This document shows positions 1 through 4,330 of a stretch of 4,330 nucleotides of DNA, one piece after another (position 1 is the stretch's first letter; every line of letters starts with the position of its first letter). The notes beneath the pieces were generated by a model, which worked only from the letters and a program-made list of their open reading frames with translations, had not been told where the DNA came from and searched no databases. Made by a program: the position numbers and the translations under genes. Source of the DNA: a virus. Lineage: Duplodnaviria > Heunggongvirae > Uroviricota > Caudoviricetes. The DNA lies in IMG/VR virus record IMGVR_UViG_2706794667_000008, positions 1 to 4,330 of that record. One strand, written 5' to 3'.

Positions 1-23
1 CCCCCCGACAGACCTGTGCTATC

Positions 24-60
24 GGAAAGAAAAAAGGCCATCAGCAAAACTCTGATGGCC
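24..60 (-). terminator. Intrinsic terminator on minus strand (copy 1 of the terminator upstream of the holin in copy 2)
   Basis: Inverted repeat GGCCATCAG (36..44) / CTGATGGCC (52..60) with 7-nt loop; on the minus strand the stem is followed directly by TTTTTTCTTTCC (complement of 24..35). No T-run on the plus side. Confidence 0.6.
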
Positions 61-105
61 TGAATCACCTTTACCAATATTGTATGAAAAAACACGCACG
101 ACTAA

Positions 106-134
106 TTGACAATAATTTTCATTTCCATTAAAAA
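106..134 (+). promoter_or_regulatory. Candidate sigma70 promoter, plus strand (antisense to phage late transcription)
   Basis: TTGACA (106..111), 17-bp spacer, TAAAAA (129..134); AT-rich context. Sequence pattern only, no expression evidence. Confidence 0.25.
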
Positions 135-538
135 AGATCGCGTAGCATTCTTAATTCATGAGGAACTTTACCCGCCAGCAATCTGAGTAGCGAAAGCTGT
201 TCATCCCCAATGTTTTTGCTGGCGGGTCCTTTTTTCTACGGTCCTCCTCCCCGGAGGGGGGCATTTCATTATTTTTCTAATCGTTACTGGTGAGAAGGCG
301 GAAGAAAAAGCCAGTTCTTCGCCCCTAAATAACAGCATGATTCCAGTCCATGCAAAATCTGATTTCCAGCTCACACATACCGAGCGCTGTACAAAAAACC
401 GCCAGCCAAGGCAGTTAAGAGTGTGTTCCCGGGGTTTGCTTAGAATATTTTGTAAGTTGTCCGAAGAGATATTTACAACACCAGAATGATGCATTATCAG
501 TCCCCTGCCAGAGGTTCACTACGTAACCTGACCGACAA

Positions 539-851
539 TGAAGTGGCACACTGAATTTGGCCACCTGAACAGAGGTGATATGCTCACCTCAGAACAACAC
601 AGGTGCTCCAATGAAAAAAAGAAATTTTAGCGCAGAGTTTAAACGCGAATCCGCTCAACTGGTTGTTGACCAGAAATACACGGTGGCAGATGCCGCCAAA
701 GCTATGGATGTTGGCCTTTCCACAATGACAAGATGGGTCAAACAACTGCGTGATGAGCGTCAGGGCAAAACACCAAAAGCCTCTCCGATAACACCAGAAC
801 AAATCGAAATACGTAAGCTGAGGAAAAAGCTACAACGCATTGAAATGGAGA
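539..851 (+). mobile_element. IS911 (IS3 family) left-end fragment, about 313 bp, truncated internally
   Basis: Begins TGAAGTGGCACACTGAATTTGGCCACC, recognised as the IS911 left inverted repeat, followed by the orfA reading frame; similarity stops at 851/852 where the sequence becomes phage endolysin on the opposite strand. No right end present. Confidence 0.85.
611..850 (+). pseudogene. IS911 orfA (transposase OrfA, HTH) truncated after codon 80
   Basis: Translation [80 protein letters not shown] matches IS911 OrfA from memory; lacks the C-terminus, the frameshift window and orfB. The 575 start in the ORF track is an upstream in-frame extension. Confidence 0.85.
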
Positions 852-1059
852 CTGCTTCGGTATACGTTTTACCGAGCATGATGTCTTTTCCGGTGTGTCC
901 GTGACATACAGTCCATACACCAATGATATCTTTGTATGGTATGTAGCTGACACCTTCCAGACCATCGTTACCACCTGGGCCAGTGATTAACACAGATGCT
1001 ATAGCAACAGCCCCACCACCAATAGCAGCTGCAACAGCCTTGCGTAATGATGGCGACAT
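852..1059 (-). pseudogene. SAR endolysin (phage 21 R / RrrD-like lysozyme), N-terminal 69 codons only, fused to IS911 antisense sequence
   Basis: [69 protein letters not shown] resembles the N-terminus of lambdoid SAR endolysins; after codon 69 the frame reads into IS911 antisense (VSISMRCS...) until a stop at 760. Start overlaps the holin stop (TAATG). Confidence 0.8.
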
Positions 1060-1274
1060 TATTCACCTCTCGCAGCCTTACGCTTGTCTTCTCTTATTTT
1101 GAAATACAGATTTGTCAGATAAGTCAGAAGCCCCAGAAGCAGACTTCCCAGCACACCAATCGCAGCCCACTGTGATGGACTGACCTGATCCAACCACTGC
1201 AAAAACCAGTAGCCGGCACTGCCGGCGGAGGTGCCGTAGGCAATGCCTGTTGATATTTTTTCCATCTGATACAT
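1059..1274 (-). CDS. Class II holin (pinholin), phage 21 S / EssD-like, 71 aa
   Basis: [71 protein letters not shown]; two predicted TM segments, charged C-terminus, Met1/Met4 dual-start motif; sits immediately upstream of and overlapping the endolysin start. Confidence 0.9.
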
Positions 1275-1303
1275 ATCCCGCCCCCCGACAGACCTGTGCT
1301 ATC

Positions 1304-1340
1304 GGAAAGAAAAAAGGCCATCAGCAAAACTCTGATGGCC
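1304..1340 (-). terminator. Intrinsic terminator on minus strand, 30 bp upstream of the holin start
   Basis: Same GGCCATCAG / CTGATGGCC hairpin as 24..60, followed on the minus strand by TTTTTTCTTTCC. Confidence 0.6.
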
Positions 1341-1385
1341 TGAATCACCTTTACCAATATTGTATGAAAAAACACGCACGACTAA

Positions 1386-1414
1386 TTGACAATAATTTTC
1401 ATTTCCATTAAAAA
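1386..1414 (+). promoter_or_regulatory. Candidate sigma70 promoter, plus strand (repeat copy 2)
   Basis: Same TTGACA-17-TAAAAA motif as 106..134. Confidence 0.25.
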
Positions 1415-1954
1415 AGATCGCGTAGCATTCTTAATTCATGAGGAACTTTACCCGCCAGCAATCTGAGTAGCGAAAGCTGTTCATCCCCAATGTTTTTGCT
1501 GGCGGGTCCTTTTTTCTACGGTCCTCCTCCCCGGAGGGGGGCATTTCATTATTTTTCTAATCGTTACTGGTGAGAAGGCGGAAGAAAAAGCCAGTTCTTC
1601 GCCCCTAAATAACAGCATGATTCCAGTCCATGCAAAATCTGATTTCCAGCTCACACATACCGAGCGCTGTACAAAAAACCGCCAGCCAAGGCAGTTAAGA
1701 GTGTGTTCCCGGGGTTTGCTTAGAATATTTTGTAAGTTGTCCGAAGAGATATTTACAACACCAGAATGATGAATCATCAGTCCCCTGCCAGAGGTTCACT
1801 ACGTAACCTGACCGACAATGCACCATTCTGGTGCTGAAAAAAGAGCACTGGAACTGCAACAAAACAACATCACAGAACAGGAGATGGTAAGGAGTCAGAC
1901 ATTCCCACACAATATTGTGTCAGTGCAAATAACAACCTTCGTCTCAAATCTCGC

Positions 1955-2029
<75 letters not shown>

Positions 2030-2032
2030 ATA

Positions 2033-2108
<76 letters not shown>

Positions 2109-2110
2109 GC

Positions 2111-2187
2111 TGGCCCACCACCGAGGACTCGAACCTCGCACCGTCAACTTAGAAGGTTGATGCTCTATCCGGATGAGCTAGTGGTGG
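2111..2187 (-). tRNA. tRNA-Arg (anticodon UCU)
   Basis: CCACCACTAGCTCATCCGGATAGAGCATCAACCTTCTAAGTTGACGGTGCGAGGTTCGAGTCCTCGGTGGTGGGCCA: anticodon stem TCAAC/GTTGA, loop CTTCTAA, T-loop TTCGAGT, 7-bp acceptor with an unusual C1-G72 pair. Confidence 0.7.
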
Positions 2188-2188
2188 T

Positions 2189-2265
2189 TGGTGGCCCTTG
2201 CTGGACTTGAACCAGCGACCTGGCGATTATGAGTCGCTCGCTCTGACCAACTGAGCTAAAGGGCC
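2189..2265 (-). tRNA. tRNA-Ile2 (anticodon CAU, ileX/ileZ-like); elongator Met not excluded on anticodon alone
   Basis: GGCCCTTTAGCTCAGTTGGTCAGAGCGAGCGACTCATAATCGCCAGGTCGCTGGTTCAAGTCCAGCAAGGGCCACCA: loop CTCATAA; acceptor and T-arm closely resemble E. coli ileX as recalled. Confidence 0.75.
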
Positions 2266-2361
2266 GGAGGCAGAATAATAACCATATGTCATCACATCTG
2301 CAAACTCATCTGACCACCAGCACGTTTAACGTCCTGTGCCGTTTTTCAGGTATAAAAAAAC

Positions 2362-2387
2362 CCGCATAAAGCGGGCTCTTTCAAATG
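2362..2387 (-). terminator. Intrinsic terminator directly downstream of the Q-like gene (tR'-like late terminator)
   Basis: On the minus strand: GCCCGC, loop TTTAT, GCGGGT, then a 7-T run; 68 bp downstream of the Q stop, upstream of the tRNA array. Confidence 0.8.
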
Positions 2388-2454
2388 TCCATGTCTGCTA
2401 TTCGCCTCGCGGTACAGCTTTGCGAAGCGTACAAGAATTGAAGCAGTTTTTACG

Positions 2455-3009
2455 TCAAAAAGCAATAACTTTTTTCTCTATACCAAAAGCCATAACCATT
2501 GGTTTGTACAAAATAAATTCTGCCACCTTTAGCCAATGCTCAATGCGTCTTTCACAGGTTCTTAAACTCCATTTCGGGTGTGCATCATTCAGCAGTTCAG
2601 CCATTTTGCGTTTGGTCATCCCCCGCCCCTCATACCGTTGCCGAAGGACGCTAATCAATCCTGGATGCTCTGCCAGCACCTCACTTATGACCCGATCAAT
2701 ACATAACGCCTCTGCATCAGTACAATGCGCCAGCCAGCTCTTTTGCTTACCGTTAATCATATCCCGCAAAAAAGCCTCAAGTTCAGACTTGTTCAGACCT
2801 GCTTTTTTCATCCTCCGGAGCGCCTCGTTAATTGCCGTTTTTGTCAGCTTTTTAGAGGTCAACATCAGGTTAAACATATTCCCCGTCTTACCGCCACCAA
2901 TATACGACCAGCGCCCCCACATACGTAGTTTTCCCTGAATCCAGACACTTTCCAGCGTGGTGAGACGAAGGTGTTCTCCGCTTTTTCCTGTATTCGTTGG
3001 GTAAATCAT
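2455..3009 (-). CDS. Putative late-gene antiterminator Q-like protein, 184 aa
   Basis: Starts MIYPTNTGKSGEHLRL... at ATG 3009 preceded by AGGAGGG; the 3129 start in the ORF track is an unsupported extension overlapping the upstream gene. Position between the nin-region genes and the tR'-like terminator matches lambdoid Q; family assignment is from context and recollection, not alignment. Confidence 0.6.
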   Translation of the reverse strand: MIYPTNTGKSGEHLRLTTLESVWIQGKLRMWGRWSYIGGGKTGNMFNLMLTSKKLTKTAINEALRRMKKAGLNKSELEAFLRDMINGKQKSWLAHCTDAEALCIDRVISEVLAEHPGLISVLRQRYEGRGMTKRKMAELLNDAHPKWSLRTCERRIEHWLKVAEFILYKPMVMAFGIEKKVIAF

Positions 3010-3296
3010 AAATATCCCTCCTTTCTCCAGATTTCTTGTGTGCGAAAAACACCTTCTGCATGCATCAGGCGTAATTCTTCTTTGGTGTAATCGCTGGTTT
3101 TTACCCGCCCGTCGATTAAATCGTGGCACGAGCTACAGGCAATCGCTGCCTGCATATCGTGTGGCTTTATCGCTGTTCCGCACGTTCCCGCCAGTCGGTA
3201 ATGCGCCAGCACAGACGTTTCCGGATCGTGATTGCAGTAGCCAGGAATTCTGACGGTGCACATCTGCCCCCGCGCCGCTTTACGTAAATCCACCAT
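3006..3296 (-). CDS. YbcO-like lambdoid nin-region protein (DUF1364 family, Cys-rich), 96 aa
   Basis: MVDLRKAARGQMCTVRIPGYCNHDPETSVLAHYRLAGTCGTAIKPHDMQAAIACSSCHDLIDGR... shares the DLRKAARG / VRIPG-CN / PETSVLAH / CGT / IACS-CHD pattern recalled for DLP12 YbcO. Stop overlaps the Q start (ATGA). Confidence 0.75.
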   Translation of the reverse strand: MVDLRKAARGQMCTVRIPGYCNHDPETSVLAHYRLAGTCGTAIKPHDMQAAIACSSCHDLIDGRVKTSDYTKEELRLMHAEGVFRTQEIWRKEGYL

Positions 3297-3895
3297 TACG
3301 CAAACTCCAGCAGCTGCGCGGCCACATTTTCGACTTGTTCCGGAGAGGAAAATTTACGGAACAGAATCCAGTTCCACAGCACATTCAGAACAGATTTATA
3401 AACCTGCTGAAACTCGGTTTCGTCCATATTCGCAAAAGCGATGGATTTTGCCCGACGCCCGCGGCTACCGTCCGGATAAAAATGTTCGGTGTAAAATCCA
3501 GCCTGAATGGTTACCCACTCGCGAAAAGCCTCAAACGACTTTAGCAATGCCGTATCCCGGGTTCTGCGTGTCGCAACTGTATTCAGATATTGCTCTGCGG
3601 CTTCGCTCAGAGCTGGCGTATGTTCCCGACCTACTGATTCGCACAGGTAATCAACGAAACCAGACAGCAGTTCTCGTTCGCGAGGCGTGATCGCCCCACC
3701 GACCGGAGTCCAGTAATCGAATCCCAGTTGCAGGAGTTTGAAAAAACGCTTGTGGAATGCGTAGTTACGCACACGCTTAAAGTCTGCGTGTATCCACTCA
3801 CCTGTTTTGATTTGATGCAGAAAATCGCAACTCTCCGGCGTCGCCGGGAGAAGTAATCCGGAAGAGGTTTGTTTGATCAGTTGTATATGCGCCAT
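3296..3895 (-). CDS. Lambdoid nin-region protein, probably DUF1367 family, 199 aa
   Basis: ORF MAHIQLIKQTSSGLLLPATPESCDFLHQIKTGEWIHADFKRV... with GGAGAA upstream of ATG 3895; stop overlaps the next start (TAATG). Real-gene call is firm; the family name is from memory of prophage annotations and needs a profile search. Confidence 0.55.
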   Translation of the reverse strand: MAHIQLIKQTSSGLLLPATPESCDFLHQIKTGEWIHADFKRVRNYAFHKRFFKLLQLGFDYWTPVGGAITPRERELLSGFVDYLCESVGREHTPALSEAAEQYLNTVATRRTRDTALLKSFEAFREWVTIQAGFYTEHFYPDGSRGRRAKSIAFANMDETEFQQVYKSVLNVLWNWILFRKFSSPEQVENVAAQLLEFA

Positions 3896-3966
3896 CGTAG
3901 TTCTCCGCTGGCGCAGTAGAATGGGTGTTCAGCCCGTTATGTAGTATACCAGAATTAATGCCAATA

Positions 3967-4179
3967 CTAACAGGATGCTCTGACTCGCAATTCATCCAGC
4001 AGTTTATCATTTCCCATAATGTCACTTACCCTCATCGGTAAAAAAATTGCCTTTCGACCATTACGATACATCATTGATTTTTTGGTTTCAGGGAAGTAAT
4101 CCATTTCGACTATAACTGACAGGTCATCACGACGTATGACTGCGTATTTACTACTAAATAGTTTCTTTATTTTTTCCAC
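3967..4179 (-). CDS. Hypothetical small protein (70 aa), AT-rich orphan; GTG start
   Basis: GTG at 4179 preceded by GGAGG with a 4-nt spacer; AT-rich codons (AAA, ATA, CTA). No homolog recognised. The frame stays open upstream to a stop inside IS1 (4246..4248) with no other start codon, so it may be either a small moron gene or the tail of a gene cut by IS1. Confidence 0.4.
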   Translation of the reverse strand: MEKIKKLFSSKYAVIRRDDLSVIVEMDYFPETKKSMMYRNGRKAIFLPMRVSDIMGNDKLLDELRVRASC

Positions 4180-4230
4180 GATGCCTCCAGGTTTATAAGT
4201 ACAAACGGTTATATCAACATAGAGACAAAA

Positions 4231-4330
4231 GGTGATGCTGCCAACTTACTGATTTAGTGTATGATCGTGTTTTTGAGGTGCTCCAGTGGCTTCTGTTTCT
4301 ATCAGCTGTCCCTCCTGTTCAGCTACTGAC
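4231..4330 (+). mobile_element. IS1 left end (inverted repeat plus start of insA), runs off the window
   Basis: GGTGATGCTGCCAACTTACTGATTTAGTGTATGAT... recognised as the IS1 terminal inverted repeat and leader; one difference from the form I recall (tgatCgtg versus tgatGgtg). Confidence 0.85.
4286..4330 (+). CDS. insA: IS1 InsA, N-terminal 15 codons (partial, continues beyond window)
   Basis: GTG GCT TCT GTT TCT ATC AGC TGT CCC TCC TGT TCA GCT ACT GAC translates VASVSISCPSCSATD, the recalled InsA N-terminus. Confidence 0.8.
   Translation, partial: MASVSISCPSCSATD

Follow-up and report, generated by a model that had tools for sequence, protein, structure and literature searches.

What lies between the tRNA genes and the holin gene of a lambdoid prophage when no cargo gene is found there? 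The question is raised by positions 1 to 4,330 of IMG/VR virus record IMGVR_UViG_2706794667_000008 (the window, i.e., the whole stretch of 4,330 nucleotides (nt) that was analyzed). Its minus strand reads as the part of a lambdoid prophage that regulates late gene expression. The region between the antiterminator gene Q and the holin gene S sets the timing of host killing by the prophage and carries toxins such as Stx, LT-II, and AB5. A first-pass annotation, made from the sequence alone, had correctly placed an interval of roughly 680 bp between a tRNA array and the holin gene (here 1275-1954, with four tRNA genes at 1955-2265 and an S21-type holin gene at 1059-1274, all on the minus strand), and had proposed that this slot holds one conserved 540-bp element without open reading frames (ORFs), a regulatory element or RNA rather than junk.

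On balance, we favor a different reading, in which two non-coding modules of lambdoid prophages, each mobile on its own, meet in the interval with no cargo between them. The RNA part of the earlier proposal stood, as the interval contains a structured RNA backed by covariation as well as conserved terminator and small RNA (sRNA)-like units, whereas the single 540-bp element did not.

Two flanks meet in an empty cargo slot

The distribution of the interval was searched in 5,426 complete Escherichia coli genomes. The holin-proximal 381 bp (1275-1655) were found in about 1,400 of them at 85-88% identity, always abutting an S21-type holin gene, and every match of this class begins exactly at 1655. 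The tRNA-proximal part (about 1670-1938), at about 70-80% identity, belongs to another set of prophages, including SerU-LTIIb and the phi80 prophage of DH5alpha, in which it always follows tRNA-Gly and is accompanied by unrelated holins. In relatives, cargo lies between the two flanks, namely an AB5 toxin (locus L010), a DNA methylase (L002), or terB, DUF3927, and iraM (L011).

The interval is thus made up of two independent flanks, one linked to the tRNA and one to the holin, which are joined at 1655/1656, and the slot is empty here. This maps the cargo insertion point in the window. The idea of a conserved module at Q-to-S junctions holds for each flank separately in the E. coli genomes, but not for a 540-bp unit.

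The tRNA-Gly trailer

The segment from 1954 to about 1670 (minus strand) is modeled as the 3' trailer of the phage tRNA-Gly(UCC), a structured RNA comprising two domains, P1 and P2, and then a terminator (Table 1). Trailer copies were gathered with a degenerate pattern, giving 23 representatives with less than 96% identity, of which 18 were aligned to obtain a consensus structure with RNAalifold. Standard pairs fill 96.5% of the 896 pair cells (50 pairs in 18 copies). Helix 1 of P1 is 97.5% paired and shows G-C to A-U covariation, the inner helix 3 of P1 has changed on both sides at all four pairs, and helices 4 and 5 of the trailer are 97% and 96% paired; altogether, ten pairs carry changes on both sides. 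The structure-conservation analysis of homologs that the first-pass annotation had called for therefore found the trailer pairs to be kept. None of 500 shuffles reached the observed pairing or covariation score, and sliding the partners by 1-3 columns reduced pairing to 30-54%.

The pairing is also strand-asymmetric. G·U occupies 152 cells versus 10 for A·C, and the share of paired cells is 96.5% here versus 80.7% on the complement. P2 by itself folds at -40.4 kcal/mol (z-score -5.7) on the minus strand versus -23.2 kcal/mol (z -2.9) on the plus strand. Compensatory and G·U changes above the controls, together with this asymmetry, mark the trailer as a conserved structured RNA. Indels of lengths that are not multiples of three occur within its conserved core, which excludes coding.

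The fetched loci contain 134 copies in all. In 127 of them, tRNA-Gly(UCC) precedes the trailer by 20-30 nt in the same orientation, and five of the remaining seven are at locus edges. The trailer was found in 399 of the 5,426 E. coli genomes (~7%), and in the phi80 prophage it directly follows the tRNA-Thr and tRNA-Gly genes. The terminator stem at the end of the trailer is kept in homologs while the loop varies (e.g., AACCGCC...GGCGGTTTTTTTT), and phi80 has an equivalent terminator. This terminator would represent the 3' end of a transcription unit consisting of the tRNAs and the trailer.

In the proposed mechanism, tRNA-Gly(UCC) and the trailer would share one transcript, and transcription of the tRNA unit in a lysogen would stop at the trailer terminator; once the tRNAs are excised, a stable, structured RNA of ~280 nt would remain. 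Instead of this, or on top of it, the trailer could provide the lysis mRNA, upon Q read-through, with a structured 5' end that is nuclease-resistant or nuclease-processed. We tentatively suggest, with rather low confidence, that the ~180-280-nt trailer represents an uncatalogued class of conserved phage structured RNA, released by RNase P, E, or III and acting in its own right, e.g., on lysis-mRNA stability or timing or by titrating an RNA-binding protein of the host, rather than as a passive spacer.

The holin leader and its terminators

The holin-linked flank (1655-1275) forms the leader of the lysis genes and was compared between the window and two clades, with 85-88% identity overall (by part in Table 1). 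A terminator scan against shuffled sequences bore out the hairpins reported by the first-pass annotation, with 15 terminator-like hairpins counted window-wide versus 4.0 +/- 1.5 in the shuffles. The interval itself has four distinct sites of predicted intrinsic terminators, at 1341-1308 and 1696-1669 on the minus strand and at 1450-1515 and 1521-1545 on the plus strand. Promoter-like motifs, which had also been remarked upon, proved unenriched (6 versus 6.0 expected from shuffles).

For the strongly conserved terminator on the late strand, the folding energy is -18.5 kcal/mol (z -3.9). A terminator is present at the same spot in unrelated leaders, i.e., before other S21-type holins, before the different holin of phi80, and in prophage PP4 of strain E2348/69, which supports a general insulating role. 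By analogy with lambda biology, this insulation would be overridden by Q-modified polymerase, such that transcription starting at tRNA or cargo promoters would be halted by the terminator and would enter the lysis genes only with polymerase so modified. The leader itself is not a general feature of the S21-type holin family, as it was confined to the Shigella/E. coli entries among 62 S21-type holin loci from other species in GTDB.

The leader was also found in decayed phage remnants beside iss on ColV-type plasmids and near pap islands. In plasmid pECAZ147_1 (L006, 3195-3844) and in a chromosomal island near papI (L007, 3243-3844), it is fused to Rz/Rz1 fragments; the holin and lysozyme genes have been deleted, and the stem of the late-strand terminator has gained mismatches, which fits a loss of constraint after the loss of the holin. 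The corresponding phi80 interval (L125, about 3240-3340, minus strand) contains two hairpins, each followed by the same GGGACAAAGTCC motif, and, 25 nt ahead of the holin gene, a further terminator (GGGCCGCTGGTGGCCCTTTTTT). The motif that is repeated resembles a binding site for a protein or an RNA.

A candidate small RNA opposite the lysis genes

On the plus strand, i.e., against the direction of the late genes, the leader carries a unit that most likely would yield an sRNA of about 95 nt, of the same kind as the prophage sRNAs PasA and PasC. Its hairpin folds at -30.9 kcal/mol (z -3.5), and a U-run follows the large hairpin on the plus strand only. The A-run of this hairpin is invariant and its 33-nt loop nearly so. 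Upstream, TTGACA and the length of the 17-nt spacer are invariant over five clades. A second plus-strand hairpin, the weaker and less conserved of the tandem anti-late terminator pair, is 70-81% identical to other clades. At minimum, the opposite-strand unit would stop antisense transcription that crosses the lysis cassette.

Two further ideas about this unit were rejected. Repression of the holin start region in trans by the plus-strand RNA received no support, as the duplex energy was matched by 231 of 500 shuffles, and a sigma-E promoter was dismissed because GGAACTT (1443-1449) and TCTGA (1463-1467) on the plus strand are only 13 nt apart and are unconserved in other clades.

The second copy and IS911

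The near-identity of positions 1-540 and 1281-1820 was seen correctly by the first-pass annotation; the two copies differ at just 492/1772 and 495/1775. The right edge of the repeat is the left end of insertion sequence (IS) IS911 (TGAAGTGGCAC... from 539). The equivalent junction in the interval is 1820/1821, inside the 5' arm of P2, and copy 1 is cut on this side with P1 and most of the P2 5' arm gone. The element was identified as IS911 (IS3 family) by a left terminal inverted repeat (TGAAGTGGCACAC... at 539) followed by the orfA frame from 611, and the matching stretch is annotated in E. coli genomes as 'IS3-like element IS911 family transposase'. Three independent contigs with a longer IS911 (L021, L027, and L035) share this junction between copy and IS911. 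The left edge of the repeat is the start of the window, past which copy 1 continues; the same point bears another IS in related genomes. Two copies of the region are present in most related enteroinvasive E. coli (EIEC) genomes.

As a duplication between paralogous segments of prophages, with insertion sequences as its bounds, the second copy does not count as evidence of conservation. What had been taken as a sign of conservation reflects an IS911-associated rearrangement, not selection. The repeat would accordingly be explained by two paralogous copies in an IS-ridden genome of the Shigella/EIEC type, one of them severed by IS911.

At 851/852, the interior of IS911 orfA (codon ~80) is fused to codon ~70 of the lysozyme gene rrrD. 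This fusion was found in none of the fetched loci or top genome matches; it stems either from a deletion that IS911 caused in this strain or from a join made during assembly. The LT-IIb toxin phage SerU-LTIIb (L009) has two diverged modules of tRNA-Gly plus trailer (3440-3720 and 5340-5625) and also a duplicated holin fragment, a second instance of duplication of this region.

Coding potential

The absence of a convincing ORF was confirmed. The longest frame (98 aa, 1481-1777, minus strand) straddles the mosaic junction, and shorter frames span 1695-1910 (minus strand, 71 aa) and 1818-2003 (plus strand, 61 aa). None of the interval frames matched Pfam or PHROG, and tblastn gave no match in 50,697 phage records. 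No frame combined a ribosome-binding site with a conserved frame or family match, and indels break the frames across clades. A conserved protein frame in homologs, which would have spoken for a gene, was sought and none is kept across the clades.

Small ORFs of 37 and 17 aa were discarded since they are broken by indels or have shifting stops. A basic frame of 22 aa (MKCPPPGRRTVEKRTRQQKHWG) lies at 1481-1549 on the minus strand, with its stop at 1481-1483. A frame of 20-33 aa with this stop is open in all five leader clades, with start codons that differ after 1-2-nt indels. It was rejected as a gene given that it has no Shine-Dalgarno sequence, differing starts, and mostly non-synonymous differences. 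The frame is probably a by-product of hairpin conservation and, less likely, a micropeptide gene.

Weighing the alternatives

Several observations weigh against reading the interval as two RNA-bearing modules. The pattern used to collect trailer copies fixed one P1 arm and part of one P2 arm, inflating the invariance there (the covariation sits mainly in columns that the pattern left free), and the window has a weak terminator at the end of its trailer (-10.7 kcal/mol, z -1.8). The whole leader is about as conserved as the neighboring holin gene, so that part of its conservation may be hitch-hiking from recent shared ancestry, and variation in its large hairpin is too low for covariation or strand assignment. 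The -10 hexamer of the plus-strand unit, TAAAAA, is weak and lacks the final T, and a consensus promoter scan did not list this motif. When the interval was compared by blastn (word size 7) with the PP2 and PP6 loci of E2348/69 (L225 and L224), only the holin gene was matched, and nhmmer, seeded with the window unit and iterated for five rounds, recovered none of L225, L226, and L227. Transcription, processing, and RNA functions of the interval are what we infer here.

The weak -10 hexamer makes a two-way insulator without an sRNA a serious rival, if a rather less probable one. In that case, the leader hairpins would be terminators facing both ways that shield the lysis cassette on one side and the tRNAs or cargo on the other, the antisense transcription arising from opposite-strand morons beyond Rz (dedA, bor/iss). 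Relatives indeed have opposite-strand genes past the lysis cassette, dedA in L003 and iss in L002, and the recurrence of terminators directly before holins in unrelated leaders as well as the unenriched promoter-like motifs suit this explanation. It does not account for the TTGACA with its fixed spacer, which is conserved across clades like the holin coding sequence, nor for the nearly invariant loop, which a bare terminator does not need; moreover, the same layout from TTGACA to terminator yields PasA and PasC, which have been detected experimentally. The inverted repeat of P2 could instead act as DNA, e.g., as a target for recombination or transposition or a repeat resembling a miniature inverted-repeat transposable element (MITE), since long inverted repeats can serve as DNA sites and IS911 has inserted inside P2. 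We regard this as highly improbable. A cruciform would be symmetric, whereas the pairing and the folding energy favor one strand, and each locus has a single P2, always equally far from tRNA-Gly, not copies dispersed in the manner of MITEs.

Decay of a former cargo gene, a pseudogenized moron or toxin whose leftover terminators are without function, is suggested by the gene-filled slot of relatives, by a 63-aa hypothetical protein called by the Prokaryotic Genome Annotation Pipeline (PGAP) in one leader clade, and by the 20-22-aa version of the basic frame that is open in all five clades. This is very unlikely given the lack of Pfam, PHROG, or tblastn matches for any frame, the frame-breaking indels inside conserved cores, the longest frame crossing the mosaic junction, and conservation maxima that fall on hairpins and not on frames; strand-specific, G·U-rich pairing with compensatory changes is likewise unexpected in a decaying gene. 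Least probable of all is the single 540-bp regulatory element of the first-pass annotation, with two copies retained as a functional unit. The near-identical copies and the ORF-free sequence are in its favor, but its right edge is an IS911 end cutting through the P2 hairpin, its left edge is the window start, where relatives have an IS insertion point, and it spans the joint at 1655, the two sides of which differ in spread (~1,400 versus ~400 genomes) and in partners. The junction of two independently mobile modules remains the reading that we prefer.

Gene context of the window

The order of features is given in Table 1. The interval is without annotation in all nine complete genomes that have a 99-100% identical copy. 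The nearest complete genomes are EIEC, and Shigella flexneri entries match as well. The IS1 terminus at the window end, together with IS911, indicates a defective prophage rich in insertion sequences, as is typical of Shigella/EIEC.

The array contains tRNAs with anticodon CAU (Met by ARAGORN, Ile by PGAP), Arg-UCU, Thr-UGU, and Gly-UCC. The codons concerned, AUA (with CAU as Ile by PGAP), AGA, ACA, and GGA, are all rare in E. coli. A promoter-like TTTGCA-18-TATTAT motif lies directly upstream of the array (2275-2304, minus strand) and may allow independent expression of the tRNAs in lysogens. The Q-like gene is separated from the tRNAs by a structured, ~90-nt leader (2340-2460, minus; -35.5 kcal/mol, z -3.3), which ends in a strong terminator (GAGCCCGC-UUUAU-GCGGGUUUUUUU) and gives weak Rfam matches to Trp_leader and the Gifsy-1 sRNA IsrK (E 0.2-0.4), far under the gathering scores. 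This is probably the short pR'-tR' transcript, an analog of the 6S RNA of lambda.

Table 1 Features of the window, ordered along the late (minus-strand) direction, with the outlying mobile elements last
Feature	Positions	Strand	Description	Basis or identity
DUF1367/NinB-like gene	3296-3895	minus	First in late order	
DUF1364 gene	3006-3296	minus		
DUF1133 Q-like antiterminator gene	~2455-3009	minus		
Short leader with strong terminator	~2352-2440	minus	Between Q-like gene and tRNAs	
Four-tRNA array	1955-2265	minus	Late-operon direction	ARAGORN; Rfam tRNA, 56-70 bits; PGAP annotation of identical copies
Interval under study	1275-1954		Between tRNA array and holin	
Trailer domain P1	1844-1927	minus	Multibranch; closing helix 1927-1919 with 1854-1844 around smaller hairpins	RNAalifold, 18 copies
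Trailer hairpin P2	1752-1840	minus	Imperfect, ~34 bp; arms 1840-1811 and 1781-1752; apical hairpin 1810-1790; conserved 3' bulge	
Trailer tail with predicted intrinsic terminator	1669-1751	minus	Stem 1696-1677, then UUUUUUGU	Terminator scan; fold
Mosaic junction, cargo slot	1655/1656		Holin-linked homology starts here; tRNA-linked homology stops just upstream	
Second plus-strand hairpin	1519-1545	plus	GUCCUCCUCCCCGGAGGGGGGC, U-rich tail	Terminator scan; fold
Candidate anti-late sRNA, ~95 nt	1421-1515	plus	5' segment; 12-bp stem, 1450-1461 with 1496-1507; GAAA-capped inner hairpin; U-run 1510-1515	
Large hairpin and A/T run	1447-1518			88-90% identity
Promoter-like motif	1386-1414	plus	TTGACA 1386-1391, 17-nt spacer, TAAAAA 1409-1414	Read from sequence; 90-93% identity
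Late-strand terminator segment	1344-1305			40/40 identical (leader comparison)
Strong predicted intrinsic terminator	1308-1341	minus	10-bp stem (GGCCAUCAG...), then UUUUUU; ~35 nt before holin start	
Spacers of leader				70-86% identity
Holin ribosome-binding region	within 1059-1304	minus	GGGGGGCGGGAU ahead of start codon	
S21-type class II holin gene	1059-1274	minus	71 aa, starts MYQMEK	ORF list; class II holin family annotation in identical copies; coding sequence 90-91% identity
RrrD lysozyme gene	852-1059	minus	First ~70 codons	
IS911	539-851	plus	Left end and first 80 orfA codons	ORF translation; annotation of matching stretch
Repeat copy 1	1-540		Equals interval 1281-1820	538/540 positions identical
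IS1 terminus	4231-4330		GGTGATGCTGCCAACTTACTGATTTAGTGTATGA...; window end	

Significance

The seemingly empty slot is predicted to be framed by two portable RNA modules, a structured RNA linked to tRNA-Gly and the leader of the holin gene, which combines an invariant terminator with a Pas-style unit. This arrangement suggests how the lysis genes stay insulated from tRNA and cargo promoters in lysogens, and it contributes two further candidates, which lack annotation and an Rfam entry, to the expanding set of sRNAs from prophages.

Comparison with known RNAs and systems

The kinds to which these features belong are known, namely prophage late-region sRNAs, tRNA-operon trailer RNAs, and terminators overridden by Q, while the members described here are unannotated and absent from Rfam. 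Searching 1275-1954 with Rfam 15 (including AgvB, AsxR, Esr41, IsrK, tRNA, and YrlA) gave chance-level matches only, far below gathering scores, which were miRNA-precursor-like on P2 and sRNA-terminator-like on 1306-1400; no family fits the trailer. A literature search by interval sequence strings gave no match, and no description of either RNA was found. Two candidates were set aside. PapR, an sRNA of uropathogenic E. coli (UPEC), was considered in view of the homologous remnants near pap and a similar strain distribution, but its cloning-primer sequences are unrelated to the window. The other was the IpeX/nmpC region of DLP12, where nmpC and essD are transcribed divergently and the sequence between them has no similarity to that of the window.

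The Q-to-S region of lambdoid prophages is the home of the sRNA genes PasA, PasC, and PasD/STnc100 (PMC8550237; bioRxiv 10.64898/2026.05.13.724894). PasA and PasC are abundant, Hfq-bound prophage sRNAs of enteropathogenic E. coli (EPEC) E2348/69, validated by Northern blot (Pearl Mizrahi et al. 2021, PMC8550237), with EcOnc51/52 in enterohemorrhagic E. coli (EHEC). They map to NC_011601 at 743499-743415 (PasA, minus strand, 85 nt) and 1290909-1290832 (PasC, minus strand, 79 nt) (PMC8550237, Table S6). Both lie between the nanS-p esterase and class II holin genes and run against both neighbors, in the order '> < >' (PMC8550237).

The plus-strand unit of the window likewise lies in a leader without ORFs that immediately precedes a class II holin-lysozyme operon, and it opposes the late genes (1386-1515 on the plus strand versus the holin on the minus strand). 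In the fetched PasA and PasC loci, TTGACA stands 30 nt before the 5' end, about the same distance as in the window unit when measured to its predicted 5' end. The terminators of PasA and PasC consist of a GCCAGC.../...GCUGGC stem and a U-run; the stem of the window unit (CCCGCCAGCAA with UUGCUGGCGGG) is built alike, and U6 comes next at 1510-1515. PasA and PasC are likewise restricted to Escherichia and Shigella, and their size is similar (79-85 nt versus ~95 nt predicted). A difference lies in the upstream neighbor, which is the nanS-p esterase gene for PasA and PasC and the tRNA trailer in the window. The PP4 leader of E2348/69 has the same order of parts as the window, an identical ATTATTGTCAAT block, and an GGCCATCAG terminator.

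Local pairwise alignment of the window interval to the PasC region in prophage PP5 gave a weak score. For family membership, Zhu, Shabalina, and Storz (2026, bioRxiv 10.64898/2026.05.13.724894) asked that blastn hits cover >75% of the query. With no detectable similarity to PasA or PasC, the likeness is architectural only, and the window unit is said to work like these sRNAs and is not filed as a member of their family.

STnc100 (RF02076), reported to be related to PasD, resembles the tRNA-Gly trailer in being a late-strand, terminator-ended RNA of the Q-to-S region. The trailer tail of the phi80 type (L125, 3363-3559, minus strand) gave a full-length STnc100 match with the exact block CGGGAGGCACCCG (24.4 bits, E 0.002), below the gathering score of 47. 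Window positions 1260-1960 gave no STnc100 match at E <= 10, and the tail in the window (1751-1669) is of a different sequence type. The 5' end of the STnc100 model aligns within the P2 3' arm in phi80, which hints at processing within P2.

Non-tRNA RNAs at the 3' end of tRNA operons are known from the 3'ETS-leuZ sponge sRNA of E. coli and from the stable 'species 1/2' RNAs that end the tRNA cluster of phage T4. The window trailer may be likened to them as an RNA at the 3' end of a tRNA cluster that would be released by processing and ends in a terminator. It has no sequence relation to either, is larger, and is dominated by the 34-bp hairpin.

A further lead comes from phi80, which bears the trailer. 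Passages of PMC5499578, PMC10731613, and PMC11143913 that cite Bothwell, Stark, and Altman (1976) describe the phi80-induced M3 RNA as a small, hairpin-like, non-tRNA substrate of RNase P. The long hairpin of the trailer resembles 4.5S RNA and sits where RNase P already acts; on the other hand, no RCCA-like tail was seen after P1 or P2. The trailer may thus identify the gene of the classical M3 RNA, a textbook RNase P substrate, although this is an unverified lead.

The late operon of lambda-type phages combines pR' and tR' with Q-dependent read-through of terminators. By analogy, the window layout appears alike, with terminators between the Q gene and the holin gene that only Q-modified polymerase would pass. 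It differs from lambda in having at least two further terminators, at ~1670 and ~1308, downstream of an embedded tRNA operon.

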